64,000 nucleotides of DNA from Catajapyx aquilonaris (lineage: Eukaryota). The stretch spans positions 1-64,000 of the forward strand of contig KZ538048.1 in the NCBI GenBank assembly GCA_000934665.2, written 5' to 3'. Below the pieces are notes generated by a model, which was given only the letters and a program-made list of their open reading frames with translations, searched no databases and was not told where the DNA came from. Position 1 is the first letter of the stretch. The number at the start of each line of letters is the position of its first letter. Shown here in pieces: positions 2,483 through 55,252 of the stretch. The translations under genes and the position numbers were made by a program.

Positions 2483-2731
2483 TTGGCTGGGACAGTCCTT
2501 ACCCCCCATCCCCTTTAGTACCCAGCACCACATAAAGCATTGGAGGAGCTCCACCAGGTGATGCTAGTTGTGCGCAGCCATTATTTTTGAACACATACAA
2601 TAACACCTGATCACATTGTGACGATGAGTGCAAAATGCCACAAGAGGGGATGAAAAATCACACCATGGCCCTAAGTTTTATGAGTGCCTAAAGAACGAGC
2701 CGTTTGTCTATCTTGCACATGAGAACAGGTT

Positions 2732-3068
2732 GGTAAACACAGGCCAGTAAAATCACATTTTTGCAACACAAAAGACGCCTATCTGCAATATGAGGGGAGA
2801 GGAAATTAATGTCATAATGAGGAAGTTCCCTGGGACATGCCTTGCAAATGAGGTCTGTGCCAAGGCATGCAACACAGTTAGAACAAGCAAGACCAAGACC
2901 TGGGTGATAGGGCCAAGTATATGTGCCTGTAGTGTGACCCGACCGAGTGTGACACAGGAATGAAAAATCAATCTGGCCAGAATAATATTACCTGAATGAG
3001 TGGCCATCAGTCACGCCAGCAGCCTTCCGGTGGGGGCTGTTGGAGCAGCTGTTGGGGCGGCCCCTGGG
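2732..3068 (+). repeat. Dispersed direct repeat, copy A
   Basis: Aligns by eye with 9561-9857 (GTAAAATCACATTTTTG; AATGAGGTCTGTGCCAAGGCAT; GACCAAGACCTGGGTGA; TGACACAGGAATGAAAAATCAATCTG). Confidence 0.85.
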
Positions 3069-4969
3069 CGAACAATGGGGACCGATTCCTGTGGGAGGGA
3101 GGGCGAGTCAGAGACTCAGAGTCGGTCAACACATTCTTCCTTTGTTCAGGGGGGACGGGGGGTTCAACGGTGGCGACTGACGCCAAAGACGGTATGGAGT
3201 CACACTACACCAGAGAAAACACTATTACCGCATGTGTACCGCATAGTAGCAGCATTTGCCCCCAATGCAAATGCCTGGCCGAAGGTAGTCGCGCCTCTGG
3301 TGAAAATAGGTGGAAAATGTGTGACAGCATCATGCTCGATCATGCTTATAAAATTACCAGGCAATCCTGCCTGGTGCAGAGCTTATTGGTATTAACCACA
3401 GTAAGTCCACATCGTACGATTTTTATATTGTTAATTAACCAATAATGTCTGTGGTTAAGTTAAGTAGAGAGATCATATTGCCACGTCATTTGCGGGGGTG
3501 TGGCTGCGTCTGTTGCAAAGACAAGGTCATGCGTCTAGTTACGCCAGGTTTAGACTAAATATGGCCGCGCCCACATGGCACCGGCGAACAACTGGCTGTG
3601 CATTTGTTCATCAGCCGTCCCCAGCCGTCGCGTCGCCGACAGTGGACTGCAATTATTGCTCAGTAAGGTAAGTGGGGGCCATGCCATGCCTAATATATAT
3701 AATATAGCTATATATACTAAATAATGTTTAATCTAGATAATAACACTTAACCATACATTATTTTTTAATTTGTCTCCTGAAAAATTGTTATAATTCTTTG
3801 TTTGCGAGACACATTTACAATCTTTCGGACCTTTATTTCTAACGTCTTTTTCTTGGCGATGCACAGATAATAATCTTCACCTGGATCATCAGGAGTATAG
3901 TGTACTTTCACTTCACTGGCAATGGCACTCAGATGTTGCAGTACAATGAACAGTACTTGAGTAGTTGCTTGTTTTCATTGCGACATTGCCACGGCTCTAT
4001 ATCAACCAGGTATTCATGTACCGGTACTGTACAAGAGTGGCATGACAATAGCTGCAAGTTCTTGACCTCTGCATTTGAGTATAAATTGACCAAAACTATC
4101 TCTATTATAGATACTTCAAAAAACTTAAGATTATTGCACTTTTTCTGCCACCCTCTATGACACAAAAATTATGTGCACTCCTCAAAGTATGAAAGGGGAA
4201 AAAATGTTTTCTTTGACACTTGTGCTCAACAGAGCCCACATTTCCTTGAGCTATTACCTGGGTTGTAGTGAGCAAGTCAGTTTCTTTCCGCCTTTCCAAT
4301 CAACTGTAATACTCAGCAGTATCCACTGCCCTTAGGAAGAAACAAAATATATATGTGGTCTCCATTTGCCTGGGCAAATTCACTTAAAAACGACCATTAT
4401 TGTCTCACTGCTTTCCATGGTGCACGTAATTATTTACAGGGGAAAAAAGTATACTGTACCAAGAAAAATTAATTGGTCCATGAAGCCACATGAGCATGCG
4501 TTAGGTGATTAAATTTGGATTCAACCATTGCATTGCAATGGGCACAGCATTTACTCCCAACCATGCATCACTGCCCTTTGGGAGAGACGAAAGAGGAGTA
4601 TGATGTGGCACCCCACTGCTGCCAAACGATTCATCCCAAAATGTAACATGTCAAGGACTTGAAGCTTTGTTCAGTCTTTACTGACATCTTTGCAGGCTGT
4701 GACTTTTGGTCCCTTCTTCACCTGCAATGTCACATTCACGCAAATACTTGTATGTCAGTCATTAATCCGACCCTGCCATGGTTGTAGTGATTTTTACGAA
4801 GCCAAGCAACATCGCATCTCTCAACACGGAGTGAGACTGGAGGTTGCTTGACTTGGACCACCCTTCTTAATCTGGAGTATTTTCTCATTGAGCAACCCTG
4901 CAATCATCCCTCAAATGTTACTAAATACAAGTACAACCAACAATATTTCCTGAACAATTGCACGCAAAA

Positions 4970-5620
4970 TTACATTCTGTATACATTCTTCATGATGGTG
5001 GTCATGTTACACTTTTTGCAATGAACCGTTTTCGACCAGTCAGTGACATCATACGAGACGTCTAGGGGCAGTTTCGTCCCACACCGAAGACATATCTCGA
5101 TGCTTCCAATGATGATGAAAGTGTTCCCCTGTTCCTCGCATCTCTTGGCCTGCACTACTTCCATGCGTTTTTTCAATTCCCAGGATTCCTCCCCGGGCAT
5201 CCTGAACAAGGTCTTGCTCAATGGACCTGGTCTTCTAACGCCAGATTTTGTGGCTCCAACCTTCTTCCGGATGGGCCCAGTAGTAACAGTGGCAGTGTTG
5301 GTGGCAGTTGCATCTTTTGTCACCTTTCGCTGCGGCTTCCGGATGGGCTGAGTAGTAGTGGCAGCAGTGTTGGTCACAGGCACAGTGGCATTTTTTTTCA
5401 CCTTTTTTCCTACCTTGGCAGCTTCCTGCTCAATAACAATATCATAGTCTGAACTGGTTGACGAATCTCTCTCCGAACTGGTTATAAGAATGACCTCCAG
5501 GGCAGCTCCCTCTGAGCCCCCTGTTGAGGTGGATGCCACTGAAGCGGTTGACTCTGCCTTAGGCGGAGAGCTGTCAGGAATGTCATCCCGGACCATCTCC
5601 ACCCACGGCTGTGGTTTTGC
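4970..5620 (-). CDS. PIAS: PIAS-like terminal exon: SIM-like/acidic segment, Thr/Lys-rich repeat, C4 motif
   Basis: Strong acceptor ccttctcttttcgaag|GCA in phase with the preceding donor; 216 open codons to TAA. Confidence 0.78.
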   Translation of the reverse strand, partial: AKPQPWVEMVRDDIPDSSPPKAESTASVASTSTGGSEGAALEVILITSSERDSSTSSDYDIVIEQEAAKVGKKVKKNATVPVTNTAATTTQPIRKPQRKVTKDATATNTATVTTGPIRKKVGATKSGVRRPGPLSKTLFRMPGEESWELKKRMEVVQAKRCEEQGNTFIIIGSIEICLRCGTKLPLDVSYDVTDWSKTVHCKKCNMTTIMKNVYRM

Positions 5621-7680
5621 CTTCGAAAAGAGAAGGAATGCAATGAAACAAATAAAGCTGGTGACCAACAATTGCACAATTATGACCAATTGTAGACATT
5701 CACCACTGTGATTGAGTTGACGCTGTGCTCCTTCTTGATGATCAGGGTAGACCAACTCCCATCCCCGTGCAGCTGAATCTCATTGCCATCTTTGGATCCC
5801 AGTGCAGAGGATGCCAACACCTCATGGAAGTACCCGTCAATGACAAGGTTGTCAAAGAGGGCAGGCTTATTGCAGACGGGGCAGATCCACGTGGGCTTCC
5901 TCTCATTCATTTTAATATATTGGCTGGCGTCAAAGCACTGAAGGTGGGCGCAGGTGCTGGCTCGACACGGTACCTCCATTCGCAGCATTCCCAGGGGACA
6001 GGCCAATGTCACTCGAAAAGACGTAGTTTCTATCTCACAATCTGCATCCTCCTTCAGTTTCTCCTTAATCAGACCCCGGGTTATGTCTGCGTGCCGCACC
6101 TGTGATCAAAATCAATTCTTTTAATGTTGGGGCAAGGGGAACATACCTACTCAAAGCTAATTTCCTCTCTATACTCACCCCTTTGCTCCTGAGCTTGGAC
6201 AGGAGGTCGGCTGAACTTAGTCGCTGCACCAAGTAAGCTGACACAGTGTAGCTGAGGCCAAATTTAGGTGTCCAGGTGACGACGATGTGATTAGGAACGG
6301 TTGGGGATAGCTTCACTTGCTCTGTGATGTTTATTGGATGAGGAGGACGCTTGGGCTCTACCCCGTGCCAGTTAGTTGGGATGGGATTGGGCAGCGGAGT
6401 GATCTTTCCATTCACCTTCACGCAGAGAGACGGTGGTAAGCTATCTTCTTGCTCGCAGGAGGTCTCCAGCAAGCAGAATCTGAGCTGCACCTTAAAAGTG
6501 AGAAATCGCATCAGTTATTGTGCACACCCCAAAATACTTGTATTATCTTAACATTTAGGCCCGCATGTACCAACACACTGATTAGTTAGTCACACTGCCT
6601 CCAGCTCCGTACCTGTGTGAGAAAGTCCCTTTTCGACCCAGACTGCATGTCCCTGGAGGACATTATGTCAGTGGCCTGCTGGAGGGTGAGGTGAAACTGG
6701 AAGGTAGCCTCATGATAGCGGCGGCTAGCCCCTTGAGGCACCAGTGCTGTGGGCTTCACAAGTTCCGCTAAAACTTCGTAAAACGGAAGGCGAGTAAGTC
6801 GCACGTCTGGGTGAACCTAAAGGAAAATAAGGATTTAATTTGGAGTTCACAATAAGATTGAAATTTTTACACGACCCAAGCTACAGGGTGATTCTCTCGA
6901 ATGGAAACCCAAACATTCCTCAATAACATTTTAACTATGGTATGGCTCCCGATGAAAATTGACCTGTACTTACCTTGTATCGTCATGCCAAACAAGGTCT
7001 AACTAAAGAATATACCAAAATTGGTCCCCTTCAGCATCCAAGAATTTTTAAATCCGAGTTTGCATATTGCCGAAGACTCCTGCCAATTGAAGGCGGCGAT
7101 CCCATCCATTCCCACCTGTCCCTGCTTGGCGAGAGGGTATCTCAAGGCAACGGGACCGGGGCCTTGCGATCCCCTCTCACCAAGCAGGCGGCGGGCGGCA
7201 GTTGATCGAGCCATTCCCGCCGGCCATTCTGCAGAAGTCGGCAATATGCAGACTCGGATTTAAAAATTCTTGGATGCTGGAGGGGACCACTTTTGGTATA
7301 TTCTTTAGTCAGACCTTGTTTGGCATGATACAAGGTAAGTACATGTTAATTTTCATCGGGAACCGTACCATAGTTAAAAAGTTACTGAGGAATGTTTGGG
7401 TTTCCATTCGAGAGAATCACCCTGTATATCCTGCAGTTTCAAAACAATCTGACTGGTGGACAGGACCAATTACCAGGTAGGTATTGTGTCCAGCTGACGC
7501 CGAGTACATATGTGCAATGGGCCTGTTGGAGGTTGCCACGTTCCCTGCCGTCCCATATGGGTGTAGGTATGGGTTTCCACGCGTCTGCATAGCCCTGGAG
7601 CCCTGCTGGGTGGCATAGCTCAAATACCCCTTTGAGCTACTCATAGTTGAGGAGGATGACGAGTTCCTGTTGCTTGGCAT
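4970..7680 (-). CDS. PIAS: PIAS/Su(var)2-10-like E3 SUMO-protein ligase, 5 coding exons: join(7680-7474,6816-6613,6490-6179,6099-5704,5620-4970), about 589 aa from ATG 7680
   Basis: Spliced translation contains VHPDVRLTRLPFY, VQLRFCLLETSCEQED, KRPPHPINIT (PINIT motif), SP-RING CPLG..PCRASTCAHLQCFD..MNERKPTWICPVC and a SIM-like LEVILITSS. All four introns are GT-AG and phase 0. The true start codon is uncertain. Confidence 0.93.
5704..6099 (-). CDS. PIAS: PIAS-like exon, SP-RING (MIZ) zinc finger
   Basis: acag|GTG ... GTG|gtgaat; Cys/His pattern of the SP-RING is intact. Confidence 0.93.
6179..6490 (-). CDS. PIAS: PIAS-like exon, PINIT domain
   Basis: taag|GTG ... GGG|gtgagt; VQLRFCLLETSCEQED...PINIT...KLRSKG. 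Confidence 0.93.
6613..6816 (-). CDS. PIAS: PIAS-like exon, PINIT domain N-terminal part
   Basis: ttag|GTT ... CAG|gtacgg; 68 codons VHPDVRLTRLPFYEVLAELVKPT...DFLTQ. Confidence 0.92.
6884..7424. mobile_element. Tc1/mariner-type MITE (541 bp) with long TIRs, in a PIAS intron
   Basis: TA|CAGGGTGATTCTCTCGAATGGAAACCCAAACATTCCTC ... GAGGAATGTTTGGGTTTCCATTCGAGAGAATCACCCTG|TA; inverted arms about 190 bp. Confidence 0.92.
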
Positions 7681-7725
7681 GTCAAGCTTGCTGGTGAGTG
7701 TGTTGAGTCTGAAGAACGGCCTTGC
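7474..7725 (-). CDS. PIAS: PIAS-like first visible exon (Ser/Tyr/Pro-rich linker; ATG at 7680)
   Basis: Acceptor tcttctgtag|G at 7725, open frame, donor CTG|gtaatt at 7473; phase 0 joins HNTYL|VHPDV. Confidence 0.75.
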
Positions 7726-7996
7726 CTACAGAAGAGGAGAATGGCTACTCTAGTCTTACAACCTGACCCCCTGGGGGACTGCACACGACCCCCAACATTA
7801 AGACAACGCACTTGCACAAGTGTCCCCTCCTCACAAATCCCTATCCTGATCCTTGTACCGGAGAGAAAAATGCGAAGGAAAAATTCGTAAGAAAAAAATG
7901 TGGTAATCCACTCCCCTAAAAGGGCTTCGTTCCCTCCAATAATGGTCTGTAAAAACAACAAGAGGGGTTCAGCAAGAATCAAGATTTTCTGGTTAA

Positions 7997-8143
7997 GGGC
8001 CGTTTTCTCGAACAGTGGTTCAAATGTAAACCGGGTTCAAAGCCAGTTTAATCCCGGATTTGATTGTTATTAGGCTGTTGTCAAGGGTTTAAACCGGCTT
8101 TGAACCGGGTTTACATTTGAACCACTGTTCGAGAAAACGGCCC
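7997..8143. mobile_element. PIF/Harbinger-type palindromic MITE (147 bp)
   Basis: GGGCCGTTTTCTCGAACAGTGGTTCAAATGTAAACC... near-perfect inverted arms of about 60 bp; flanks TAA / TTA. Confidence 0.85.
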
Positions 8144-8725
8144 TTAGTCACCCTGCCCATTGCTGGAGGCACACTACTGGAGAAAATAATGATTTTTTCA
8201 GCCATAACTTCATAGAAACATATTGATACTGGAATAGACTTGTACCTGGCAAGTACCACCTAGCTCGGATTTATACAAGTTCCCTTAACACTAAATGAAT
8301 TTGAGGCTGTGAATTATCTCCTTGTTAGCTGTAAGCACATTGACACTGATACCTATTACAATATGGGCTTAGAAGGCTGCAATGTGGTTTTGAAGGTATA
8401 CCAGGAGTTAACATTATTTATATTCATGAAGACCTTGTCACAATATAATGAGCTTCAAACACAAGATATAAAATCTCCAGTTAGTGTCCCTCTGTGCAAC
8501 CTAACCCTTTTCATTTAAATTCAAGTAATGATGCCAATAAGACTAGTGTAGAAGGCAATGAAAATGTCATAAGCTGTATCCACAACATAGAAGATGCTAT
8601 AATGTGCTTTATTAAATGCTACTTATCTGGGTAACTATGCTGCAGAGTTACAATAATCGTCTAGAACCTCTCTGCCATCCCACAAAGCAAAGGCATGCTA
8701 AATTTCCACACCCTGTATAATAGTA

Positions 8726-8889
8726 CAGGGCAACCCTAAAGTCTGGACACATAGGTAATTGGACTGTATTGTTGGTTGCCAGTTGTTCCAACGCAACCTT
8801 TACTGGCTGTCAACAATCTGCTAGTTGGCACAACTGGAAACCAACAATCCAGTCCAATTACCTATGTGTCCAGACTTATGGTCACCCTG
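8726..8889. mobile_element. Tc1/mariner-type MITE (164 bp)
   Basis: TA|CAGGG..AAGTCTGGACACATAGGTAATTGGACTG ... CAGTCCAATTACCTATGTGTCCAGACTT..CCCTG|TA. Confidence 0.87.
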
Positions 8890-9560
8890 TATAATAGTAA
8901 TAGTACAAATAATATAACAAATGTATAGTGTAGTGCCCCATGATGAGTACCTCAGAGACACCACAAAATAACACACGGGGAAGGGTATAAGAACCAATTT
9001 GGAACTGTATTCCAGGACAACAGGCTGCAAACGTCCGTCCCAAAGGACGTCAGGAATAGAACACTAAACAACGCAAAACAATCACTCAGGATCCCCTGAC
9101 CACATCAATAACGTAGTGACCTGGCTACCATCAACAGCCAGCTGCCTGGTCACCACAATAGTCTATAATGTAGTGATAGTGTATACAGTAAATTCCAGGT
9201 GTAACAAACTTCAAGGGATCTCGGAAACCTCTGAAAATATACTATGCTATGAATGCAACCCACAAGCCCTCTTCAGCAAAGCATAGGATTCGGGGCGGGG
9301 GGAGGGGGGGGGGGGAAGTGGTGTGGCCAAAATTTTGACTCAAAATAGTATATGTTTTATTATTAAGAGATTTGTTACAAGCAGTGGCAGTATAGCTGTG
9401 GACCCTTGCTCACAGTTGGCATTTTGTTTCATGGGGATAAAAATATGTTTTCACGTATAATGATGTCTAGATTCTGATGACAGCAAAATGTCAAAAGGGA
9501 ATGGTCCTGCGTTTCGAATCACCACTAGTGTGTGTCCCCCAAAAAAAATGAGCCAAGGGA

Positions 9561-9857
9561 GGTAAACCCATGCACGTAAAATCACATTTTTGAAAAACAA
9601 AAACCACCTGTCTGCAATGAGGGGAGAGAAAATGCACTAGAGGAAGTTCCCTGAGAGGTGGTGGGACATACCTTGCGAATGAGGTCTGTGCCAAGGCATA
9701 TGCAACACGGTTAGAACAAGCGAGACCAAGACCTGGGTGACAGGGCAAAGTAGCCGGGTGTGTCGGGCTGACACAGGAATGAAAAATCAATCTGCCCATA
9801 ATAATTACCTGAATCAGCCAGCCGATGGTGGTGGATGTTGCTGGCAGCCCCTGGGCA
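9561..9857 (+). repeat. Dispersed direct repeat, copy B
   Basis: Same blocks as 2732-3068, with indels. Confidence 0.85.
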
Positions 9858-10447
9858 GTGGAGAGGGCAAAGATGCGCCTGGAGAGATGCACATTGTATT
9901 GGCCTCTCACTAACAGTTCCAGTACTTGCCTGTTTAACATCCAAAATGTAGGTCTCTATGCCTTGTTCAAACTTCCTGCATTTTGCTGATGCCTGAGATT
10001 GCAGGGGATGGAGGACTTGTGGTGACTGATGGAACAGCCTGAATTAACTGAGGCTGATCAGGTTGAATGCAAGAAAGCAATATACCACCTCCTGGGAACG
10101 GAAGCTCGGTCTGAGGTACTGCCTGCTCAGAACAATAGACAATGGGGCAAAGGACCAAGAAGGTATGTAGGCTATTCATGAATGTTCAGGAATCTGTTGC
10201 CACGTTTGTCACCAATAGGAAGCAACTGCTTGATGACACACAAATTTTTCACTGCAGAGAAGAGCAATACAGGGCATTTTGGAAGGAGCTGGAGACTTAC
10301 CTGCGAGCTCATGGAAGGCCGCACAGGCACAGGAGGGTCCTGGAGTGTCTTATGGATTGCCGGAACAAACCCATGGAGGAAGACAGGGAAGAGTGTGTTG
10401 AGTTGGAACAAGCACTCAGGGAATTGGACAGGTTAGCTTCCAACTAA
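9825..10447 (+). pseudogene. Possible decayed or small unknown gene: reading frame with two TGA interruptions and a 56-bp intron
   Basis: Frame 9825-10162 is broken only by TGA at 9987 and 10023. AG|gtatgt (10163) ... aatag|G (10218) joins in frame to the helical ORF ending at 10447. No family recognised. Confidence 0.35.
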
Positions 10448-10557
10448 TGCAAATTTTGAAGGTTTATGTTCTCTGGGAATGCTTGTGGGCTTGAAATTGC
10501 ATGGAACCCCTGAATTGTTCAAATCCAGCTGACATGCAATTATGATACGGCTGTACC

Positions 10558-10660
10558 CAGGGCCGGAGAGAGAGAGAGAGGGGGGGGGGTCTGTATTCGA
10601 GCGAAGGGGGCCCAAATCTTTGCCATCCCTGGGGCCCGGCTAGACCTCTCTCCGGCCCTG
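10558..10660. mobile_element. hAT-type MITE (103 bp)
   Basis: Perfect 15-bp TIR CAGGGCCGGAGAGAG; perfect 8-bp TSD GCTGTACC at 10550-10557 and 10661-10668. Confidence 0.9.
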
Positions 10661-13254
10661 GCTGTACCCATACCTACCCTACCCATCCATACCTTCTTTA
10701 TGAAGTATCCCTTTAAGCTCACCCAAGGCATGGTGAATGAACCGTAGGACAGGAGATGAAGTCATTTCCTGGCAGGAAACCTTGCACAACATGAACAATG
10801 AATACCACTGACAGAAACAACCACGCAAACAATGCCACCTAGTAATAGTACTAAAGAATGTCCAGCATTATCTATAAGGATGGAGAAAATGTGTATGAAA
10901 ATCCTGTAAACAACCACTGTAATAAAGAATGCTTGAATATGGAAGGTTTTTATAACTCAGAAATCATCCAGGCATTAATATATTGCGAACTTTTATTCCA
11001 ATCTATTTTCTATAGCACAATCACTTGTAGCCATCCGTCTTTGTTTTTTAATATTATTTTTCAATGACAATGTGATATATTTTCAAAAACACTGCATCAG
11101 GCCTGCGTAAAACCAATAGTACCACGTTTCTTTTTGTTCAGCCAATACGCAATACAACAGCGGAACCTCAAGGCAACCATATTTGACGGATTATGTGTAT
11201 GTCTGCAGCATCTTCTCTCTCATTGGCAGCACATGTCATTGTTAGCTGTTGGGTTTCTTCATGGCTCAGTAAAAAAAAAGGAGGTTCAAAATGAACTACG
11301 ATATGCTGACCAAAACTTGTTCAAAACGTGACAAATTCAGAGATTCACACTTTCTACAGTATAGCCTGTAGGTTTCAAGCAAACAGGACACCATATGCAC
11401 TGTACTGTACATGGTAACAGCATTACAAGTAAATTAAATTGCCACATAACACACTTTTTCACACATGCGCACATTTGACTTATTTTTTCTCCTCGACTGT
11501 GTGCAGGGCGAGTGACTGATCAGTGGTCAAGACCTCGCCAAATAGCGTTGAGGAGACTGAAAGTTTTCTGGTACTGGTACCAGTGATGTCAAATAACTTA
11601 AAGCTCAACTACGCTGGCGAAACTTGACTACCGCTTTTGCAACTGAGGGTTCCGAGATCTCTTAGAACAGCCAAACGAATGGTGAGAAATTGTTGACTTG
11701 TTCCATACAATACATAAAAAATAATGAACAACTTTCATCTGATGGCTAGATGCAACTGAATGACAGGAAGAACAACACTCATTTCGGAACAAAAATACAT
11801 AATTATGCATTTTACATAAATGCACCCACACTTTTTCTCGCACATTCATTCATGTCCACTCTACATGCATCATAGTAAAGACAAACAGACATAACAAACT
11901 ATGGAATTCAATCACTCAACCTCCCATCTGGCCTTATCCTTTCTCTTGTTCAGTTGAGAAGATGGAGGGAGCTTCATTCCGGCGGTGTGCAAGAAAACCG
12001 CTATAACTATATTTACAGCTCAAGCAGTTACGTTCATTTTTCAATCGTGTTTTACGTTGTGTGGAAGATTACGTGGACTTTCATTTTAAATAACATTATT
12101 ACCAATTATGGGTACAGGAACACCCTCTTTTCATTATGTACAACTTGTACTCCACATCGAAGATTCCAAACCTTGGTTGCTCTTGTACATAATATTCGTG
12201 ACACATTCTATTTACAAGCACCACCCTTTAGTTACACGACTGTGTCGGGCTAAAACTCCTGGATGTTTTGGCTCGCATTCATCCTAACAAATTACTTCAC
12301 TCTTGTTGCTTCCCTGGTACCTGGGACACCACCTTCTTACATTTCTGTAGTTAGAGGTTTAAAATTTGGGACTGCTTTCCTTTAATCAGGGAACGGGTCG
12401 CGCTATGCAAACACGGAAACTCCGGGCTCATCTATCCACAAAAAAAATCTAACATAACATCACCTAACCTCCTTCACTCATAATCTAAGGATGCTACATG
12501 CCAAGTTTGAGCGCTATCCGATAAATAGAAGCCAAGAGAGAGCAAGTGCCCCTCCACATATGGCCACTCCCCTGCCTCCCCCATGACTACTGGAAAGAAG
12601 TACCAAAATTGTTGCACATTTGGAAGCTTGAGACATTCCAAACAGCTGCTCCACATAATAAGCATTAGAAACACCCAACTGTTGCCAACACACACTGAAT
12701 AAAAAGTCCTTGAGTGACGAGAGAAGCAACATATGCAAAGGCACAAACTCCAAATTCTTGCTATGTTTCCAATGCAGCTACACACTGCCACCCAACAGCA
12801 TCCACTTTCAGCCTGAGATTGTACATTTCCCTGACGTTGCTCGTAGCACTCTATAGCCTCGGTTCCTTTTTTTGCTTTTACTCTTTTTTTGATTGATAAA
12901 AGAAGTTAAAACCAGTACAAATGTAAAACACGGTCTCGCTCATATTCAAGGTTAAAAATGTCCGCCAACCACACCATGTAGAAATTTGCTACTGTGACAT
13001 TTAACAGTGAGAGTGACTAAAAGTCATATAATTTTGTCACCACTCCAACTGGACCTAATGTGTTTCCAAAAAAATGCAAATTACAACCACTTCATTCCTG
13101 CAAGCCTTGTTTAACTCTGAGGGGAAACATGTAGATCTTAACTCTCTCTCATCTTCAAAGATTTCTCTCCTGACCTGTCAGAGAAGGAGATTAGTGACAT
13201 TTTCAGAAGATGCCAAATTGAAGTAAGAAAGCTATGGACCTACCTGAAAACTAG

Positions 13255-13364
13255 TTATAGGAAGAGAAGGGATAAACTGCCGACAACAATCACAGCCATC
13301 ACATTCTGTCCTCTCAAAGTGCTCTCTGCACCATTAGGCTGCATATTTGCACTGTTGGCTTCTG
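13255..13364 (-). CDS. IgSF last coding exon, GPI-anchor-signal-like tail
   Basis: tcttttttctcaacag|CAG (NAGNAG acceptor), phase 1; EANSANMQPNGAESTLRGQNVMAVIVVGSLSLLFL* ends in a hydrophobic stretch. Confidence 0.8.
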
Positions 13365-16300
13365 CTGTTGAGAAAAAAGAGGGAACTTTGCAATCACGTT
13401 GAGTCGGCTGATCAACATCTCCTAGGCTGATCAACATCTCCTAATTTTTACTTTCAGGAATGTGGTTGTAACAAACAGAAAAAAATAGAAATGTGCTTAT
13501 TAGTAAAGGACCTCTTTTGTAATGCATCTGCAGAACAATTAGAAGCAACAGAACCTGCTAGCATATTGATTAGGGCAGGTATTTTAAGATGCAACTCATC
13601 TGCAAAAAAAAACAACTGATGATCAAGTTATCCAAGTGACCAAGTCCCTTCAAAATATTCTAGGAATCTATGGCATCCACTCACTTTTTCTCAAGTTATT
13701 TGTGTGCAATAAAATAACATTTGCTTTCTTTGTGTCCATGACAATACTTAGGTTTATATCTCGTAACATGAACTGCACCAGTTGTGCTTTCTCAAATCTT
13801 GGGTCTTGGGTACATTGACTTCTTGACCATCATGACAAGCAGCAATGCTGTCCCATCTAACATTTCATATAGCCGAGTCCACTGCTTGGTACTACACTAG
13901 TCACACACCACACATCCAATGCATATTGGAGATGTCATTCCAGATATATAATACACAACCAATCATTTATCGCAGCAAGCAACAATACCATCAAGGAACA
14001 ATTACTGATCATTTTAGCAACCAGCAAAACCAAAGGGAGAAAATACCACCTTAGCCAACCAAGACAATTAAAAATAAGGAGAAACAGCAGGAAGGAACTA
14101 GAAGAATGAACAGAAACCAACCTGCCATCCCGCGTTCGGGTGCAGCTTCTGCTGACTGATAATCTAGAGTGAAAAAGCAATAAAGGCTTAGTGGTGGTGA
14201 AAAAAAGTCTACAAATGAAAACCACACTCAGAAAAGGACATGTACTCTGCCAAACGTTCTCCACAAATCTGCTCATGCACTGACCAGATTGGCATCTCTG
14301 TAATGAGGTTAACCCAAGTGTAAAGGATCCTCATGACAACATCTAAACCTCATCTGTGGTAGGTAGTACACAATAACTCTGGACCTGTCAGTCATTCTAG
14401 CAGGAGATAAGCATGTAGCATGATAGCATGGTAGCATGGGGTTTAGGTGTTTAATATCATTCTGTGCTGCTGATAGATTTTGAAATGGGAGAACCCGGGA
14501 GAACCCCAAGGAAACACATTTATGCAAACCCGGACTGAACCCATAGAAATTCTTTCCGCTAGTGGAAAGAATTTCTATGTATTATGTTGAATGTAAGCAT
14601 TCAGTCAACTATTCAGGCCCTAAATTTTTATGAATTTCTATGACAAAGATGAGATATTTGATAATGACAACTCTTGACCCCACTGGCACCTATGCTCAAT
14701 GGAGAGATTAAATTTAACAAGGCTAGACTCTTCTGCATTGATTTAAAGAATGGACCCATATAACCTAATTATTATTAGCGGCTAAATATTTTCTAGTGTC
14801 TCCATGGAAGCACATCTCAAATGCATCTCAGTGTCAGTTGTGTTTCCTGTCATGGTGTAAACACACCGAATTGATATGTATCTAATGTCAACGTGTTAAA
14901 TAGTATTTAAATTGTTAATATTTATACGTATTATGGGAATTGACTGTGTCAGTGTCCTGTGCATTTTTCAAAGCTAATATTTGCTGTAACTGCAAGGAGT
15001 GTTCATACTTATGTTTTGTGAGTGAAATAAAATTCTGTGATTTTCACAAATTAATATTGACAATATAATTTGGGTGCCTATGGGATGCTGATGGGAAATG
15101 TTCTAAGAACTCTGTACTGCCTCACATATTCTTTGGATAATTATTTGAAACAGGAATAGAAAGGGTGCACCATGACAAGTGTGACAACTGCCACCTTAAT
15201 ATAGTCACCTGGCCTCTTCACCCATGTTTGCACTGCACAACAAAATTCTGTGCAAAACAGGAAATGACAACCCATATTACATTCAAAACCAACAAAAGAA
15301 ACAATAAAAGCTGGTAGCAGTTCCAAGATCGAGCAAAACATGTAATAACATTGTGTCATTCACAAAGCAACATGCTTGACAATGCATATAGTGTCTTCCA
15401 ATTTGGAAACTCACCCCTTCCATTAGTGTAGATCTTCTTAGTGTCTGAGGCAACTGACATTCCATACTGGTTCTCAGCTAGCACAATGACCTCATACTCT
15501 GTGCCCTGGTTCAGATCCTTGAGAGTGCTGCTTCCACTGTACTTGGTCTCGGCAGCAGATACTTTGTCCACCTTCACAGTTTTCCAGTCAGAGCCTCCCT
15601 GTAACGCCAAAGCGTCATAATTAATTCTGCCAAACTGGTGTGCCTTCTTGTCTATTTACCTGGAACTTTCGATATTTGACCTCAAACCCGGAGACTGGTG
15701 ACAAGCTTTGCACTGACCAGGCCACATAGTAGCTCTTCATGTCATCTCCTGGATTTGTTTCATCAATGACAGGCTTTTTTGGTGCTCCTATTGCAAAAAT
15801 TACCATAATAATAATGTGCACACAAGCATTGGCCCCATGACATTTTTTAAAACAATACCTGAGAATTCGATAACACCAACACTTTGACCCAAAGAGTTAT
15901 TGGCATGGCAGGTGTAGGTTCCAAAATCACTTTTTTGAACATTCTTCATGTTGACAGTGTATGATCTGCCATCATGTTCAAGTCTGTAGATCTGCTGGTT
16001 GATAGGCTTGTGATTCTTCAGCCAGTACACCTAAATGAAAGATTCAATGTGAGTGCGAACATTTAAACATATACATTATTCCTTTGTTATAAAAGAAAGT
16101 CAATCAACTCTCAATAAATTGGTAGTTACTAGTTAGACATCAACTGACAAAGCAATTCACATTCAATTGATGGCAATAATTGAGTCAGTTCAGGTCAATT
16201 GGTATCAGTCTTAATTTTAAAGGAAAAATGCCCACTGGAACCACTTACAGTTAGTCATATAGTACCTCAAGTTATTCATAAATCGAGGAATTAATTACAT

Positions 16301-19300
16301 TGCAATACACAATATACCAGGTGTTTCACAATTTTACTCGAATTTGTATAGGCCTCAAACCCCCCCCCCCNCCCCCCCCCCCCCACCCCCAAGTCCCATT
16401 GCTGCTCTGTGGAGGGCAGTGCAGTGTAAGGAAAAGAGAGGGAGCTGCACGAGATATGCATTCAGTTCCTCTTGTTGGCTCATATTTGCCAGGAGCACTC
16501 AGGATTGGTAGTACCAATTATTAAAGCAAGCACCCATGATATTTAAATTTATATTGATGTGAGTTAATTATGAAACACAGTAGCCTATACAGTAAAACTT
16601 GTGTATACTAGAGTCTGACTAGAGTTAAACTATTTCAAGAAAATTTTATATAACGTACTGAAGAGGTTTCTGCTCGTTATAATTGAAATAGAGTATATTG
16701 TAATAATCCTCTGCCAGCTAGTGTGTAATACTGTAAGAGTAGCCTAATATATACATATCAATTTATGACTTGGAGCCAAGCATCAATGGTATGCAGATTT
16801 TCCAGTTTATGATGTGTTTCTTTGGACCTCCTGTATTTTCATTTGTGACTGATAATACTCATACACTTGGCCATCAAAATATTCTACAATAGAAAGTTCA
16901 AGATTTGCTAAATCCAGGACCCGCTACAAACAGGCATTTTACTGTATGGCAGCTGACAAAACAATAGTGGCAATACTGCCCTGTTGACATACCGTAAATA
17001 AATCACATATTCACCAATCATGTACAAAATTTGAAAGTACGGTGATCATGCAACCAATGAAAACCACATTTAAAAAGTAATGGAGCATTAGCAGGTACTG
17101 CATCGAGACAGTCCTGACCCACCTTTGGTCTAGGCTCTCCATGAACGGTGCATCGCAGATGCACATCATCTCCCACGTTCTTGTGGACAGTCTCCTCGTG
17201 GGTGTCTATCTCAGGTGGAACTGTATCAAAAGGAACGTGATTAATACACAGTACCTAAAACATCCAAAAGATGGCCTGTGCAGGTGCAAGACTACCGCGC
17301 CCCTTGAAATCACTCCACTAACTACCATTCCAAATAATTTCGCGCGCACCAGACAAATTGCGGTAATCATCGCAATGTTTCCATTCAAGATGGTAGTACT
17401 CACACAAAACTTTGAGCTCAAAGGTGACCGAAGCTGGTTGTCCCCTGCCATTGTCGGCCACACATTCATAGAAGCCGCTCTGCATGCGAGTCACCTCGTC
17501 GAAGATGATCTCCTTGCCCTGAGTTGGCTGGAAGTGCTTGTCGCCATGCTTGCCCTGGAAGATAATGAGGAAAGTCAATCGCCACGTTCAACTGGAATCA
17601 GCACGTTCCGTGGAGAATTCAAAGGCGTGAAATTTAAAACCGGATGGATGGGTGTGACGACTGGATGAATTTTCTGAAAAAAAGAGATGGGTAGGGGGGG
17701 GGGGGGGGAACCTTGAGCTTACAGTTTAATCATGTGGGGGAGGAACAATTTTTGCAAATCCTCTTTGGCCCATGTTCCAAATTACTCTCCTTCAACGGGG
17801 AAGCCAAACTGATTGCTGATTCACACAGATTGGGTACGTTGCCCGGCCCAACTGCACCTAATCATCCCAACGGAAAGACCATTCGCGGGTGATTGGGTCC
17901 ACACAAGGGGATTCCAAAGGGAGGGTGGGAGAGAGAGAGAGTGAGGGGGTCTTTGGAACCATCGGTGTTGTCCTTCTCGAGGTCACTGTTTACCGTTGCT
18001 CAGTTGCCAGTTTCCCTCCAACCCAGTAGCTTTGTTGTTGCCAGCGACCGATAATGAGTTCATACACAGTGACTGACCTTTCGAGTCCAAGTGATGGTTG
18101 GAGTTGGGTAACCAGTGGCGTTGCATAACAATGTGGCTGGATTTCCCTTGAGCGCCTCGATGGTAGTTGAAGCGTACTGGATTATTGGAGGACCTGCAAA
18201 AGCGAGCCTTGTACTAAAAAAATATTGAGCACAACTAGAGGGTGGTCATTATTACACCAGCTATAAAACAGTTACTCCGCCTTTTTTGCTACCAAGGCTC
18301 CGCTATCGATGTCCAGTACACAGTCGTAGCTAGAGCAACTCTGGTCGTGTTTGCCGGTACTTTGCATACTCGGACAACATTACCCGGCTGGAGTGGGCTA
18401 GGCAGCTTCACAACACGGAATGCTACTGTGAGAAATGGGCCGTGAAGCACGTTATTTTGGTCAGCAGACTTCCTCTCTAGGGAGAGGACACGACTCAGAG
18501 ACGCAAACTTTGTGGCCCATAGCAGATAGCTAATATTCATTTCTTGCCTTCGAGCAATGTCGCTAATTAGTAGAAACGGCTGCATTTTCCTGGAGAAACC
18601 TAGCTCCCAGACGAAAATTTTGTTGAGGCTTGCAAGTAGTGCAGCAACTTGGACCCCCCCGACCCGAACCCGTCGGCAGTCAAGTGTTCAAACATCTTCA
18701 CATCAAACATATTATCGTGTTGACTCTGGTGGCAGCAGTTGACGCAAGTTCTCTCTTGATAACATTAGAAACTGGCGCAAGCTATGTTTCCCGTCTGCTT
18801 GTCTGTATTTGCGACAAACTTGGACCCCCCCAAAAGTTGTCCGGAACAATCATCTCTCAATTTTCGAACTTGATTTTTCTCCTCTTCCCAACTTTTGGCG
18901 GCCATTTTTGTGGGTCGGAAGGTTAATCCCCAGTGTGGGTAAATCCCATTTTCTCATTAAACTTATCTTCTTTTTTTTCTATCCGGCTCTTCGAATCGAT
19001 AAATAAGCGTCAGAGGGCCAGCGCGTTTTCGGATCGTTAACCTATTAACGACCAATGTCCTAAGGCACTTGATCTTTCCTACGGCGAATCCCATTATCTG
19101 AATCAAATGGCAGAGGGCAATCGTGATTTCCAGTGCGCCGGAATTAAACCGCAGCTTTTACTGACACGATTCCAGTTAGATATGGCGTTAATGGCGAGGT
19201 CAGGAACCGTTCATTCCAGTCCAGACGAAATTAGACAGATTCGGACTGCTAGTTTCGCGACATTTTTTATTATGATTCCCACCGAGAGCCAGGTTCGTCA

Positions 19301-20123
19301 CGGCAATTAACCCGATTTTTAATCAAAAATTACGCACTCTCTGGGAGGTTTTTTTTTACAGCTTTTTCCCTTCAGGTTTTTATCTAGCTCAACTCTGCCA
19401 ATCACAGGATGAATACATTGGTCGTAACATCGACAACTTCAAAAGTTCTTTGCTCTAACCCTAGGGACCTTTTTGGAGCTTGGAGCTTGAAACTTACCGT
19501 AGACTGTCACACTGTGGACCAAATGGATGGGAGGCACCACAGCGATCTCGCAGACGTAGTTGCCAGCGTCACTCACACTCGCGTTCACAATTGTCAAGGA
19601 TGTCATGTTCTTGTCCACCGACACTCTGTTGTCACTCGTTGTGATGCTGGTGCCGACTGCCAATAGGGATGTGCCCTTCTTCCACATGACAATCAGGTTC
19701 TCTGTCATAAAAATACTTCATTACTAGTACTGTACAGAATGGCGGGCTGGACTCAAAAATATTTAAAAATTTAGTTGAACCAAAATTGTGTGTCTTGAAA
19801 CACTTGCATATCCGATATGCAAGTGTTTGAAGACACATGGCATGCCAAAATTGTAGTTAATGTTTGACCTAAAATTGGGTCCAACCTAACTACAATTTTG
19901 GATGAAATAACAGTTGCGTTCAACCTGATAGGTTGTCTTTTCAGTGTGGTATGGTCAAAAAGTGACTTACGTAGATTTTCACCCTCGCATGGCAGTTGGA
20001 TGGTTTCCCCTGCGGTGACATTCCGGTTGAGGGGTTTGCTAAAGAGCTTCGGCTGCAAGACGTTCTCGTCCTCACTCTCGTCGTAGTTGTTGTCGCTGTC
20101 GTCCTGGAAGTCGTCGTTGCAGT
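13255..20123 (-). CDS. Ig-superfamily cell adhesion protein (3 Ig + FN3 + probable GPI signal; Klingon/Wrapper/Lachesin-like), 5' incomplete: join(20123-19971,19701-19498,18193-18078,17554-17404,17220-17123,16030-15859,15787-15660,15598-15415,14163-14122,13364-13255)
   Basis: Ig motifs LPC..W..DAGNYVC, LLC..W..QSGFYEC and LRC..W..DFGTYTC; FN3 W..V.Y..LNQGTEYEV; hydrophobic C-terminus. All introns are GT-AG with matching phases; about 452 aa without the signal exon. Confidence 0.92.
13406..13443. repeat. Perfect 19-bp tandem duplication
   Basis: GGCTGATCAACATCTCCTA x2. Confidence 0.9.
14122..14163 (-). CDS. IgSF 42-nt symmetric (phase 1-1) stalk microexon
   Basis: ttgctttttcactctag|AT ... 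GCAG|gttggt; open frame DYQSAEAAPERGMA. Confidence 0.65.
14542..14579. repeat. 38-bp palindrome, probably a minimal MITE derivative
   Basis: CATAGAAATTCTTTCC-gctagt-GGAAAGAATTTCTATG; perfect 16-bp arms. Confidence 0.75.
15415..15598 (-). CDS. IgSF exon: second half of FN3
   Basis: ttacag|GGA ... G|gtgagt; W...LKDLNQGTEYEVIVLAENQYGMS. Confidence 0.9.
15660..15787 (-). CDS. IgSF exon: first half of FN3
   Basis: aatag|GA ... CAG|gtaaat; GAPKKPVI...YYVAWSVQSLSPVSGFEVKYRKFQ. Confidence 0.9.
15859..16030 (-). CDS. IgSF exon: second half of Ig3
   Basis: tttag|GTG ... G|gtattg; VYWLKN...VQKSDFGTYTCHANNSLG. Confidence 0.92.
16590..16944. mobile_element. Degenerate pogo/Tigger-like MITE
   Basis: TA|CAGTAAAA ... 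TTTTACTG|TA; only 8 bp of inverted identity inside the TA. Confidence 0.3.
17123..17220 (-). CDS. IgSF exon: first half of Ig3 (absent from the ORF track)
   Basis: atacag|TT ... AAG|gtgggt; FPPEIDTHEETVHKNVGDDVHLRCTVHGEPRPK. Confidence 0.92.
17404..17554 (-). CDS. IgSF exon: second half of Ig2
   Basis: ttccag|GGC ... T|gtgagt; IIFDEVTRMQSGFYECVADNG. Confidence 0.92.
18078..18193 (-). CDS. IgSF exon: first half of Ig2 (absent from the ORF track)
   Basis: ttttgcag|GT ... AAG|gtcagt; PPIIQYASTTIEALKGNPATLLCNATGYPTPTITWTRK. Confidence 0.92.
19498..19701 (-). CDS. IgSF exon: second half of Ig1
   Basis: gacag|AG ... G|gtaagt; VMWKKG...SLTIVNASVSDAGNYVC. Confidence 0.92.
19971..20123 (-). CDS. 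IgSF exon: acidic N-terminal tract + first half of Ig1
   Basis: ttcacag|AC ... C|gtaagt; CNDDFQDDSDNNYDESEDENVLQPKLFSKPLNRNVTAGETIQLPCEGENL. Confidence 0.9.
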
Positions 20124-54948: not shown

Positions 54949-55252
54949 NNNNNNNNNNNNNNNNNNNNNNNNNNNNNNNNNNNNNNNNNNNNNNNNNNNN
55001 NNNNNNNNNNNNNNNNNNNNNNNNNNNNNNNNNNNNNNNNNNNNNNNNNNNNNNNNNNNNNNNNNNNNNNNNNNNNNNNNNNNNNNNNNNNNNNNNNNNN
55101 NNNNNNNNNNNNNNNNNNNNNNNNNNNNNNNNNNNNNNNNNNNNNNNNNNNNNNNNNNNNNNNNNNNNNNNNNNNNNNNNNNNNNNNNNNNNNNNNNNNN
55201 NNNNNNNNNNNNNNNNNNNNNNNNNNNNNNNNNNNNNNNNNNNNNNNNNNNN
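54949..55252. other. Assembly gap (304 N)
   Basis: N run between poly-C and poly-G. Confidence 0.99.

Follow-up and report, generated by a model that had tools for sequence, protein, structure and literature searches.

The minus strand of the window, the whole 64-kb stretch of DNA that we analysed, carries between positions 7725 and 4970 a PIAS-like gene for which we detected no SAP domain. With moderate confidence, we take it for a copy of the organism's PIAS gene that arose by duplication at the DNA level, is truncated at its 5' end and in all likelihood retains its capacity to encode a protein. The gene, as read off the sequence, consists of five open exons (Table 1); every intron runs from GT to AG, every junction is in phase 0, and the introns measure 79-657 nt. 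The span of the original prediction, 4970-7725, agrees with the stop codon and with the first base past the acceptor AG, and the in-frame ATG that it placed at 7680 is present at 7680-7678, within the predicted exon A. From this putative start codon the spliced frame comprises 589 codons and a single terminal stop. Fifteen further codons are open ahead of the ATG, up to a TAG (7728-7726) that serves as the in-frame stop bounding the exon A frame as well as the predicted acceptor. Exon A is linker-like in composition (rich in Ser, Thr, Tyr and Gln) and closes at the donor CTG/GTAATT; its likeness to the Timema PIAS linker was not significant (E 1.7). Neither a poly(A) signal nor a promoter could be assigned to the gene by eye, and the output of a scan for bacterial-type promoters and terminators (7.6-11.2 kb) was set aside as inapplicable to a eukaryotic gene.

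Table 1. Predicted exons of the PIAS-like gene and features of the surrounding DNA (window positions).
Feature	Position	Strand	Remarks
Exon A (predicted)	7725-7474	-	84-codon open frame, read from sequence
Exon B	6816-6613	-	N-terminal part of PINIT (VHPDVRL...)
Exon C	6490-6179	-	Remainder of PINIT; PINIT motif intact, PTNWHG derived
Exon D	6099-5704	-	SP-RING/MIZ finger; Pfam match 5863-6012; derived loop GMLRM 5977-5991
Exon E	5620-4973; stop TAA 4972-4970	-	216 codons and stop
Acceptor AG (7727-7726) and pyrimidine tract ccattctcctcttctgtag	7726-7745	-	Directly upstream of exon A; predicted site
Palindromic MITE-like insertion	6882-7426		Within the intron between exons A and B
Repeat-derived DNA	7766-8146		Begins 41 bp upstream of exon A
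3' terminal exon of the Ig/FN3 upstream neighbour	11100-13172	-	3,591-nt contig of run X1

The core of the gene is recognisably that of a PIAS protein. Pfam assigned PINIT (PF14324, cut-off 27) to exon B (29.9 bits, E 8.7e-7, profile 2-54) and exon C (63.2 bits, E 4.6e-17, profile 53-142), and zf-MIZ (PF02891, cut-off 33.5) to exon D (78.3 bits, E 3.7e-22, full profile 1-50). These matches, all on open frames, bear out the intact PINIT and SP-RING exons of the original prediction; exons A and E matched no significant Pfam family. By tblastn, exon B was 52-60% and exon C 57-64% identical to insect PIAS. The PDB matches of exon D included PIAS2 (4fo9, E 9.6e-42) and PIAS3 (4mvt, E 1.8e-41), and every Cys and His of the SP-RING stretch, together with the Trp preceding CPVC, is identical to 4fo9 and 4mvt and to the consensus of at least 95%. 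The SP-RING and PINIT matches place the gene in the Siz/PIAS-type SUMO E3 ligase family, and the encoded protein would be expected to have Ubc9-dependent SUMO E3 activity.

Canonical PIAS proteins start with a SAP domain. The original prediction had found no SAP exon ahead of exon A and had suggested HMM and tblastn searches upstream of 7.7 kb; these found no SAP either, and the absence held across the 64-kb window by Pfam, tblastn and a custom profile. With Pfam, SAP was matched at E <= 1 by none of the 148 stop-to-stop frames searched on the minus strand (at least 25 aa, 7644-18764), out of 252 listed up to 26 kb. A tblastn search of the window with 58 SAP-bearing N-termini gave no HSP above 24.3 bits among the matches listed. 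The list gave the top HSP of every 100-bp bin for the 25 bins with the most hits, and no bin of this set fell at 7.7-11.1 kb. The custom profile, built from 67 distinct PIAS SAP regions, found nothing better than E 1.8 when run on the 3,793 six-frame peptides (at least 8 aa) of the window; two of its source homologs scored 102.6 and 90.0 bits, a self-check and not an independent control. Runs of N (801-884 and 54949-55252) lie far from the PIAS-like gene.

The space for a PIAS 5' exon is bounded by an Ig/FN3 gene, whose 3' end at about 11.1 kb leaves 3.4 kb, partly repeat-derived. Ten CT..AC joints in a contig of run X1 trace this neighbour up to 19971, and Pfam matched I-set, Ig_3 and fn3 at 15.4-19.7 kb. 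In the repeat-derived stretch next to exon A, loose ends of X1 contigs lie at 7765/7767, the X1 cover of 7853-8056 is mismatched, and a hairpin is formed by 7994-8055/8085-8146. The arms of the MITE-like insertion pair 6882-6981 with 7327-7426 (94%) and 6983-7073 with 7238-7328 (96%), and related copies occur in X1 contigs. Outside 4.9-18.7 kb, Pfam searches of 150 of 173 frames of at least 75 aa, up to 58.2 kb, matched only an Ig exon at 19442-19717, and Rfam gave no matches. A search with an Ig exon yielded no hit from 42 candidates.

The three motif substitutions listed in the original prediction were confirmed: in sets of up to 178 relatives, the window's residues are seldom or never found. 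At CPLG-xx-R, 168 of 178 relatives have KM and none the ML of the window copy; at EI-x-TT, A is found in 167 of 171 and the window's E in none, nor does any relative have its F at the second residue past TT; and at PTN-x, K occupies the position in 74 of 76, with W, as in the window, in none. Overall, the window copy departs from the insect consensus of at least 95% at 19 of 153 columns, the highest count in 115 rows (next 15, median 0), and these departures include K>M and M>L in CPLGKMR, A>E in EIATT and K>W in PTNK. A gene tree gave it the longest terminal branch (0.404), part of which may be taxonomic distance because the tree holds insect PIAS only. Some of the 19 departures may be older than the duplication. 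In a search of 5.8 billion proteins, exon D reached 75% identity at best (to insect PIAS) among longer proteins (521 of 630 candidates, E <= 0.001); among near-length proteins (113 of 115), identity was 71-73% in the best matches covering at least 80% of the query and up to 80% in short partial ones. No same-species or sibling protein was among the exon D matches listed. Pattern searches of metagenome contigs with exon D gave 12 confirmed matches of 364, the best at 57%.

Two contigs of run X1, a run of unrecorded kind whose contigs are spliced, point to a second, more canonical PIAS copy in the organism. Over exons C and D they are about 92% identical to the window copy, and they carry the canonical residues LGKMRM and AE-GR where the window copy has derived ones. 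One of them has 14 mismatches in 174 nt; their depth is 3.3 and 4.0, and single-contig differences at depth below 5 may be errors. Among the differences listed, 8 of 12 on exons C and D are nonsynonymous, and at least five of these (M>K, L>M, P>A, K>E and L>R) yield the amino acid that insect PIAS usually have at that position. Further differences on these exons are possible, because the 12 are a selection from 40 listed over the whole stretch, with 22 further. Contigs below 99% identity are the only ones on exons C and D among the X1 pieces listed, and no transcript of the exact window copy was seen; at 4836-5419 there was no X1 cover among the pieces listed, which says nothing on expression. 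The intron between exons C and D (6100-6178) agrees with a joint in a spliced X1 contig, the shorter side being 26 letters at low depth. An X1 contig that spans this intron with small indels fits a DNA-based, not a retro-copied, duplication. The original prediction had spoken of a lineage-specific duplicate with altered targeting: the canonical residues of the contigs at about 92% identity and the top-ranking divergence of the window copy support the duplicate, and the altered targeting stays conditional.

Exon E combines a SIM-like element with an orphan tail. At 5441-5494 it encodes a SIM-like VILIT and a Ser/acidic tract, which can be set by eye as VILIT-SSERDSSTSSDYD beside the insect VIDLTLSDSEDE. 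The tail holds a pair of Thr-rich basic repeats (5264-5327 and 5336-5405) and, towards the C terminus, a CxxC-x20-CxxC motif (5009-5092). A search of 1.84 billion representatives found no relative of exon E apart from two matches to proteins with internal repeats, which we dismissed as spurious, and none of 308 pattern matches in metagenome contigs was confirmed. A single-sequence AF2 prediction, a poor model, gave the tail a mean pLDDT of 46.8 and rendered it mostly disordered, and the best score in an atlas comparison, 0.80, was at chance level. A zinc-ribbon identity found no support (Pfam DZR E 0.17; pLDDT below 50 over the second CxxC).

We propose that the duplicated copy would have retained the exons for the linker, PINIT, SP-RING and SIM along with the short introns between them, that the SAP exon would not have been carried along or would since have been lost, and that a new basic tail with CxxC...CxxC and no detectable relatives would end the duplicate. 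An exon border just behind the SAP region is normal for the family, since annotated SAP-less isoforms in Hymenoptera join the common part directly past ...ELYKTIQ; the acceptor of exon A sits at the same relative place. The most likely product would be a protein of about 589 aa starting at ATG 7680, perhaps behind a non-coding upstream exon. Its SP-RING would bind the SUMO-charged E2, its SIM would bind SUMO, and its PINIT would bind substrates. It would lack both the LxxLL contacts of SAP and the SAP tether to AT-rich or matrix DNA, so that its targeting would differ from that of the canonical copy. We infer that the copy is expressed, and its new tail may have a role. It is improbable, in our view, that the gene goes further and represents a lineage-restricted, fast-evolving paralog that has swapped SAP for a basic tail with a zinc knuckle and remodelled its SP-RING loop (KM>ML), making a re-aimed ligase, for example in germline or transposon control. 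Drosophila Su(var)2-10 has a role in piRNA silencing.

A more serious contender, though still an unlikely one, is a young unprocessed pseudogene: a partial duplicate without promoter or SAP exon, unexpressed and drifting neutrally, that has yet to acquire a stop or frameshift. Such drift would suit the 8 of 12 nonsynonymous differences from the sibling, which approximate the neutral share and, where they can be polarised, fall on the window lineage. It would also suit the near-invariant columns that have changed, K>M and M>L within the SP-RING included, and the repeats lying both 41 bp upstream of exon A and within the intron between exons A and B. In simulations of neutral substitution (2,000 replicates each, indels ignored), the 589-codon frame survived in 26.6% at 2% lineage divergence, in favour of the pseudogene, but in 7.9% at 4% and 0.7% at 8%, against it. 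Against drift, all five exons are open with every splice site intact, the Zn ligands and PINIT motif are preserved, as the SIM-like stretch appears to be, and the orphan stretch of about 156 codons past the SIM tract is open, for which rough arithmetic at about 4.5% stops per codon would give a chance near 0.001. The 19 accepted changes were also milder than random nonsynonymous ones (mean BLOSUM62 +0.37 vs -0.49, P = 0.0135). These are signs of retained constraint on the window copy.

Because exon A starts at a strong acceptor, an upstream exon is possible, which might be non-coding or might be a SAP exon outside the window. The latter would make this a complete PIAS gene, with a SAP exon spliced to 7726 from more than 56 kb upstream (the Ig/FN3 gene then being nested in the first intron) or from unassembled sequence, which we consider unlikely. 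First introns of PIAS genes can be long, the acceptor has a good pyrimidine tract, 15 codons are open before the ATG, and in canonical insect genes the SAP region is directly followed by an exon border. Yet SAP was found on neither strand of the 64-kb window, the intervening DNA is occupied by a gene of several exons on the same strand that has a 3' end of its own, the other introns of the PIAS-like gene are far from this length, and the residues ahead of the ATG, ARPFFRLNTLTSKLD, do not resemble ...IKELYK..., the conserved end of the SAP region. Very improbable is the reading that dispenses with a duplicate and takes the 92% contigs as a divergent allele, assembly noise or another organism, with the window holding the sole, unusually divergent PIAS. 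The contigs are indeed short, at depth 3.3-5.1, and such differences, like joints with a side below 30, are unreliable; but differences that mostly change the protein and repeatedly restore a family-typical residue are unlike errors or alleles, and X1 is exact on the neighbouring gene, without mismatch across the listed pieces of the 3,591-nt contig.

If expressed, the truncated duplicate that we favour would be a domain-deletion experiment of nature, in which a PIAS core lacks SAP and its SP-RING loop is altered, and its contrast with the sibling would show the part of SAP in substrate choice and nuclear placement outside vertebrates. If not expressed, it would be an ordinary young partial duplicate. 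For annotation, the fitting label is PIAS-like partial duplicate, and not the organism's PIAS.

The window copy shares with canonical arthropod PIAS, including Su(var)2-10, the PINIT, the SP-RING and, as judged by eye, a SIM-like VI-x-LT with a Ser/acidic tract, in the same order, and keeps all Zn-ligand Cys and His; unlike them it has no SAP, departs at the 19 near-invariant positions and ends in an unrelated C-terminal tail. Against Zootermopsis nevadensis PIAS2 isoform X2 (P0001), identity was 76% for the SP-RING exon and 63% and 56% for the two PINIT exons. Compared by sequence only, exon D aligned over 124-125 residues with human PIAS2 and PIAS3 (E 1e-41) and more distantly with yeast Siz1/Siz2 (3i2d, 5jne and 6u75; E 1e-18 to 1e-20). 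A literature search, which is no proof of absence, showed no SAP-less arthropod PIAS paralog among the matches listed; SAP-less PIAS copies are nevertheless known elsewhere, with trout paralogs and insect isoform models as precedents. The insect models (Nomia melanderi X3, P0030; Harpegnathos saltator X3, P0047; Polistes fuscatus X4, P0071; Aedes albopictus X4, P0120) resemble the predicted product in beginning in the linker, past the exon border following ...ELYKTIQ. Their SAP exon, however, lies in the same gene and is skipped via an alternative first exon, whereas the window has none within 56 kb upstream. In rainbow trout, a published report describes Pias2a1 and two Pias4b ohnologues as duplicated PIAS that keep SP-RING and SIM and in which the N-terminal SAP is absent, much as in the window copy (PMC8657546). 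The trout paralogs arose by whole-genome duplication in a vertebrate, whereas the window copy would be an apparent local partial duplication in an invertebrate-like genome, with an orphan tail. The SAP-less trout Pias2 is reported to be still nuclear, in a dot-like pattern, and still to reduce NF-kB activity (PMC8657546).

The PIAS-like gene lies at 7725-4970 on the minus strand, where five exons (A to E in transcript order, table below) each hold an open frame and are separated by four introns of 657, 122, 79 and 83 nt, bounded by GT..AG throughout and with every junction in phase 0. The in-frame ATG at 7680 that had been noted opens a spliced frame of 589 codons with one, terminal stop. The PINIT and SP-RING exons were, as noted, intact: Pfam splits the PINIT domain between exon B (29.9 bits) and exon C (63.2 bits), which jointly cover profile positions 2-142, and exon D is the SP-RING/MIZ finger (78.3 bits, cut-off 33.5), matched by the solved cores of human PIAS2 and PIAS3 (E ~1e-41) and by yeast Siz1 and Siz2 (E 1e-18 to 1e-20). 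Five insect PIAS proteins matched exons B, C and D at 52-60%, 57-64% and 68-76% identity (tblastn), and had no match elsewhere in the window. Downstream of the SP-RING, exon E encodes VILIT and then a Ser/Asp/Glu tract, which by eye would correspond to the insect SUMO-interaction motif (SIM) VIDLT-SDSEDE. Among the domains that define the Siz/PIAS family, the predicted product has PINIT and SP-RING and, within the window, no SAP.

Exons of the PIAS-like gene and inverted repeats upstream of it
Feature	Position	Strand	Remark
Exon A	7725-7474	minus	borders read from sequence
Exon B	6816-6613	minus	borders read from sequence
Exon C	6490-6179	minus	borders read from sequence
Exon D	6099-5704	minus	borders read from sequence
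Exon E	5620-4973	minus	borders read from sequence; stop TAA 4972-4970
Hairpin-forming inverted repeat	7994-8146		upstream intergenic space
Hairpin-forming inverted repeat	8739-8877		upstream intergenic space

The absence of a SAP exon held in three independent searches (Pfam, tblastn and a purpose-built profile), the latter two run over the whole 64-kb window and with it the 7.7-13 kb at which the suggested SAP check was aimed. Pfam gave no SAP match at E <= 1 in any of 148 minus-strand frames at 7644-18764 (stop to stop, at least 25 aa; 148 of 252 listed). In tblastn against the whole window (word size 2, E up to 50), 58 N-termini that carry SAP produced only noise, at most 24.3 bits among the matches listed; of the 25 bins with the most hits, none fell in 7.7-11.1 kb. 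The profile, built from 67 distinct PIAS SAP regions and scoring two of its own homologs at 102.6 and 90.0 bits, reached a best E of 1.8 among all 3,793 six-frame window peptides of at least 8 aa. The only long N runs are 801-884 and 54949-55252, so an exon close to the gene is not concealed in an assembly gap.

The three motif substitutions also proved real. Of 178 relatives, 168 have CPLG-KM-R; EI-A-TT is present in 167 of 171 and PTN-K in 74 of 76, and the corresponding window residues (ML, E and W) in none of the 178, 171 and 76, respectively. A consensus (>=95%) was taken from 114 insect homologs (6 of 120 were dropped for more than 10% gaps); the protein of exons B-D departs from it at 19 of 153 conserved columns, the maximum of 115 rows (next 15, in Timema models; median 0). 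In the gene tree (FastTree, LG+gamma) the window copy has the longest terminal branch of the 115 rows, 0.404 followed by 0.312; the median, 0.007, is kept low by numerous near-identical isoforms. The tree holds insects only, so that the long branch by itself could reflect taxonomic distance. Among these insect rows it sits beside Ischnura elegans (support 0.81). The Timema protein models P0012-P0015 themselves show 13-15 departures from the consensus, and P0191, a second fragment from Timema, is more canonical; a diverged PIAS copy of their own may thus exist in stick insects.

Spliced contigs from sequencing run X1 (depths 2.2-5.1) supported the proposed duplicate. One differs from the window at 14 of 174 nt over 5927-6100, another covers the end of exon C, a further one, with small indels, the C-D intron, and one joins 6099 to 6179; spliced joints with a side shorter than 30 letters, like this one (26), call for caution. 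Eight of the 12 differences listed on exons C and D are nonsynonymous (40 of 62 differences are listed overall, and 45 contig pieces lie beyond those listed). Read from window to contig, the SP-RING loop has M>K, L>M, E>Q and V>I, while those in PINIT are P>A, K>E, L>R and V>A. For at least five of the eight, the contig has the residue usual in insect PIAS (LGKMRM; AE-GR). The simplest reading of these sequences is a putative second, more canonical PIAS copy sharing an intron with the window copy; on this reading the gene would have been duplicated at the DNA level, and the derived changes would have arisen in the lineage of the window copy.

Directly before exon A stands a strong acceptor (pyrimidine tract and TAG/G), and 15 codons are open ahead of the ATG. 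In SAP-less isoform models of Hymenoptera (Nomia X3, Harpegnathos X3) a short alternative exon replaces everything up to ...ELYKTIQ; a border between exons immediately after the SAP region is thus characteristic of the family, and the exon A acceptor is plausibly that inherited border. A non-coding exon or a far-off SAP exon may now be spliced to it, or it may have no partner.

Farther upstream, a 3,591-nt X1 contig, whose listed pieces match the window with 0 mismatches, has ten CT..AC joints (GT..AG on the minus strand) between 19971 and its terminal exon, which occupies 13172-11100; the introns are 61-1304 nt long. Its exons match I-set, Ig_3 and fn3 (Pfam), so a same-strand Ig/FN3 gene (11100-19971) ends 3.4 kb upstream of exon A; one Ig exon of 68 aa had no relatives in a protein database search. 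The intervening 3.4 kb is in part repeat-derived. Loose ends of X1 contigs mark a repeat edge at ~7766, the two hairpins have arms of 62 and 54 nt that are 94-95% complementary, and a dispersed repeat at 9548-9817 recurs at 2719-3000 (76.5% identity over 294 nt), flanking the PIAS-like gene on both sides. The stretch 10005-10432 resembles, at ~93% and with two segments replaced, a portion of a 3,420-nt X1 contig that is abundant (depth 83.6), and is probably a transcribed repeat or gene-family member; a 102-codon plus-strand frame (10139-10447) overlaps it. Intron A-B holds a 545-bp palindromic MITE-like element (6882-7426; arms 94-96% complementary), related copies of which occur in X1 contigs at depth 20-31. 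At 4244-4502, 470-730 nt past the PIAS-like stop codon, a 259-nt X1 contig (depth 2.1) matches exactly; it may belong to the gene's 3' UTR or be unrelated. Scanned frames of at least 75 aa in 20000-58000 contained no Pfam family, and outside the two genes described the window is poor in genes.

We give an even chance that the gene is a SAP-less paralog which works or did so until recently. That it is instead a young pseudogene seems doubtful: the nonsynonymous share of the listed differences is about neutral and the 5' side is crowded by repeats, but every frame and splice site is intact, and in simulations (2,000 replicates per divergence) the 589-codon frame survived in 26.6%, 7.9% and 0.7% of cases at 2%, 4% and 8% divergence with substitutions only, which indels would lower. 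Moreover, the 19 changes are milder than random single-base nonsynonymous ones (BLOSUM62 mean +0.37 vs -0.49, P = 0.0135), and the Zn ligands are all conserved, as are the Trp preceding CPVC and the PINIT motif. A SAP exon lying at a distance, which the exon A acceptor could accommodate, is unlikely; the searches cover the window. That no duplicate exists is very improbable: single-contig differences at depth below 5 may be errors, but errors or alleles would not be expected to give the residues usual in insect PIAS.

Behind the SIM tract, exon E encodes two basic Thr-rich repeats (5264-5327 and 5336-5405, 77% alike) and ends in CLRC-x20-CKKC. This tail had no relatives among 1.84 billion representatives, barring two matches to internally repetitive proteins; 0 of 308 metagenome-contig pattern matches were confirmed, Pfam DZR gave E 0.17, and the best Atlas score, 0.80, was at chance level. 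An AF2 single-sequence model was poor (mean pLDDT 46.8); in it, values of ~70-79 were confined to the helix and hairpin of residues 147-179. A zinc-ribbon-like module would be a guess from the Cys spacing.

If the SAP-less paralog works, its PINIT, SP-RING and SIM would still bring SUMO-charged E2 to substrates. The KM>ML change occupies positions 9-10 in the MIZ profile (50 positions), where, by analogy with RING E3s at large, it could contact the side that binds E2. The basic tail may provide nuclear import or a new tether; the results lend no support to a link with piRNA silencing. Without SAP, the product would lack the N-terminal region that in amphioxus retains PIAS in the nucleus (PMC5719053). 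A trout study describes SAP-less Pias2 as still nuclear, in a dot-like pattern, and still repressing NF-kB (PMC8657546). SAP-less paralogs are already described in trout, and insect annotations often include isoform models that lack SAP: of the 120 insect homologs listed, 41 have no precomputed SAP match, some being fragments or having divergent SAPs, and seven of the 41 are named 'isoform X' models starting in the linker. The PIAS-like gene is therefore of a kind already known, and its orphan tail is its only unusual feature.
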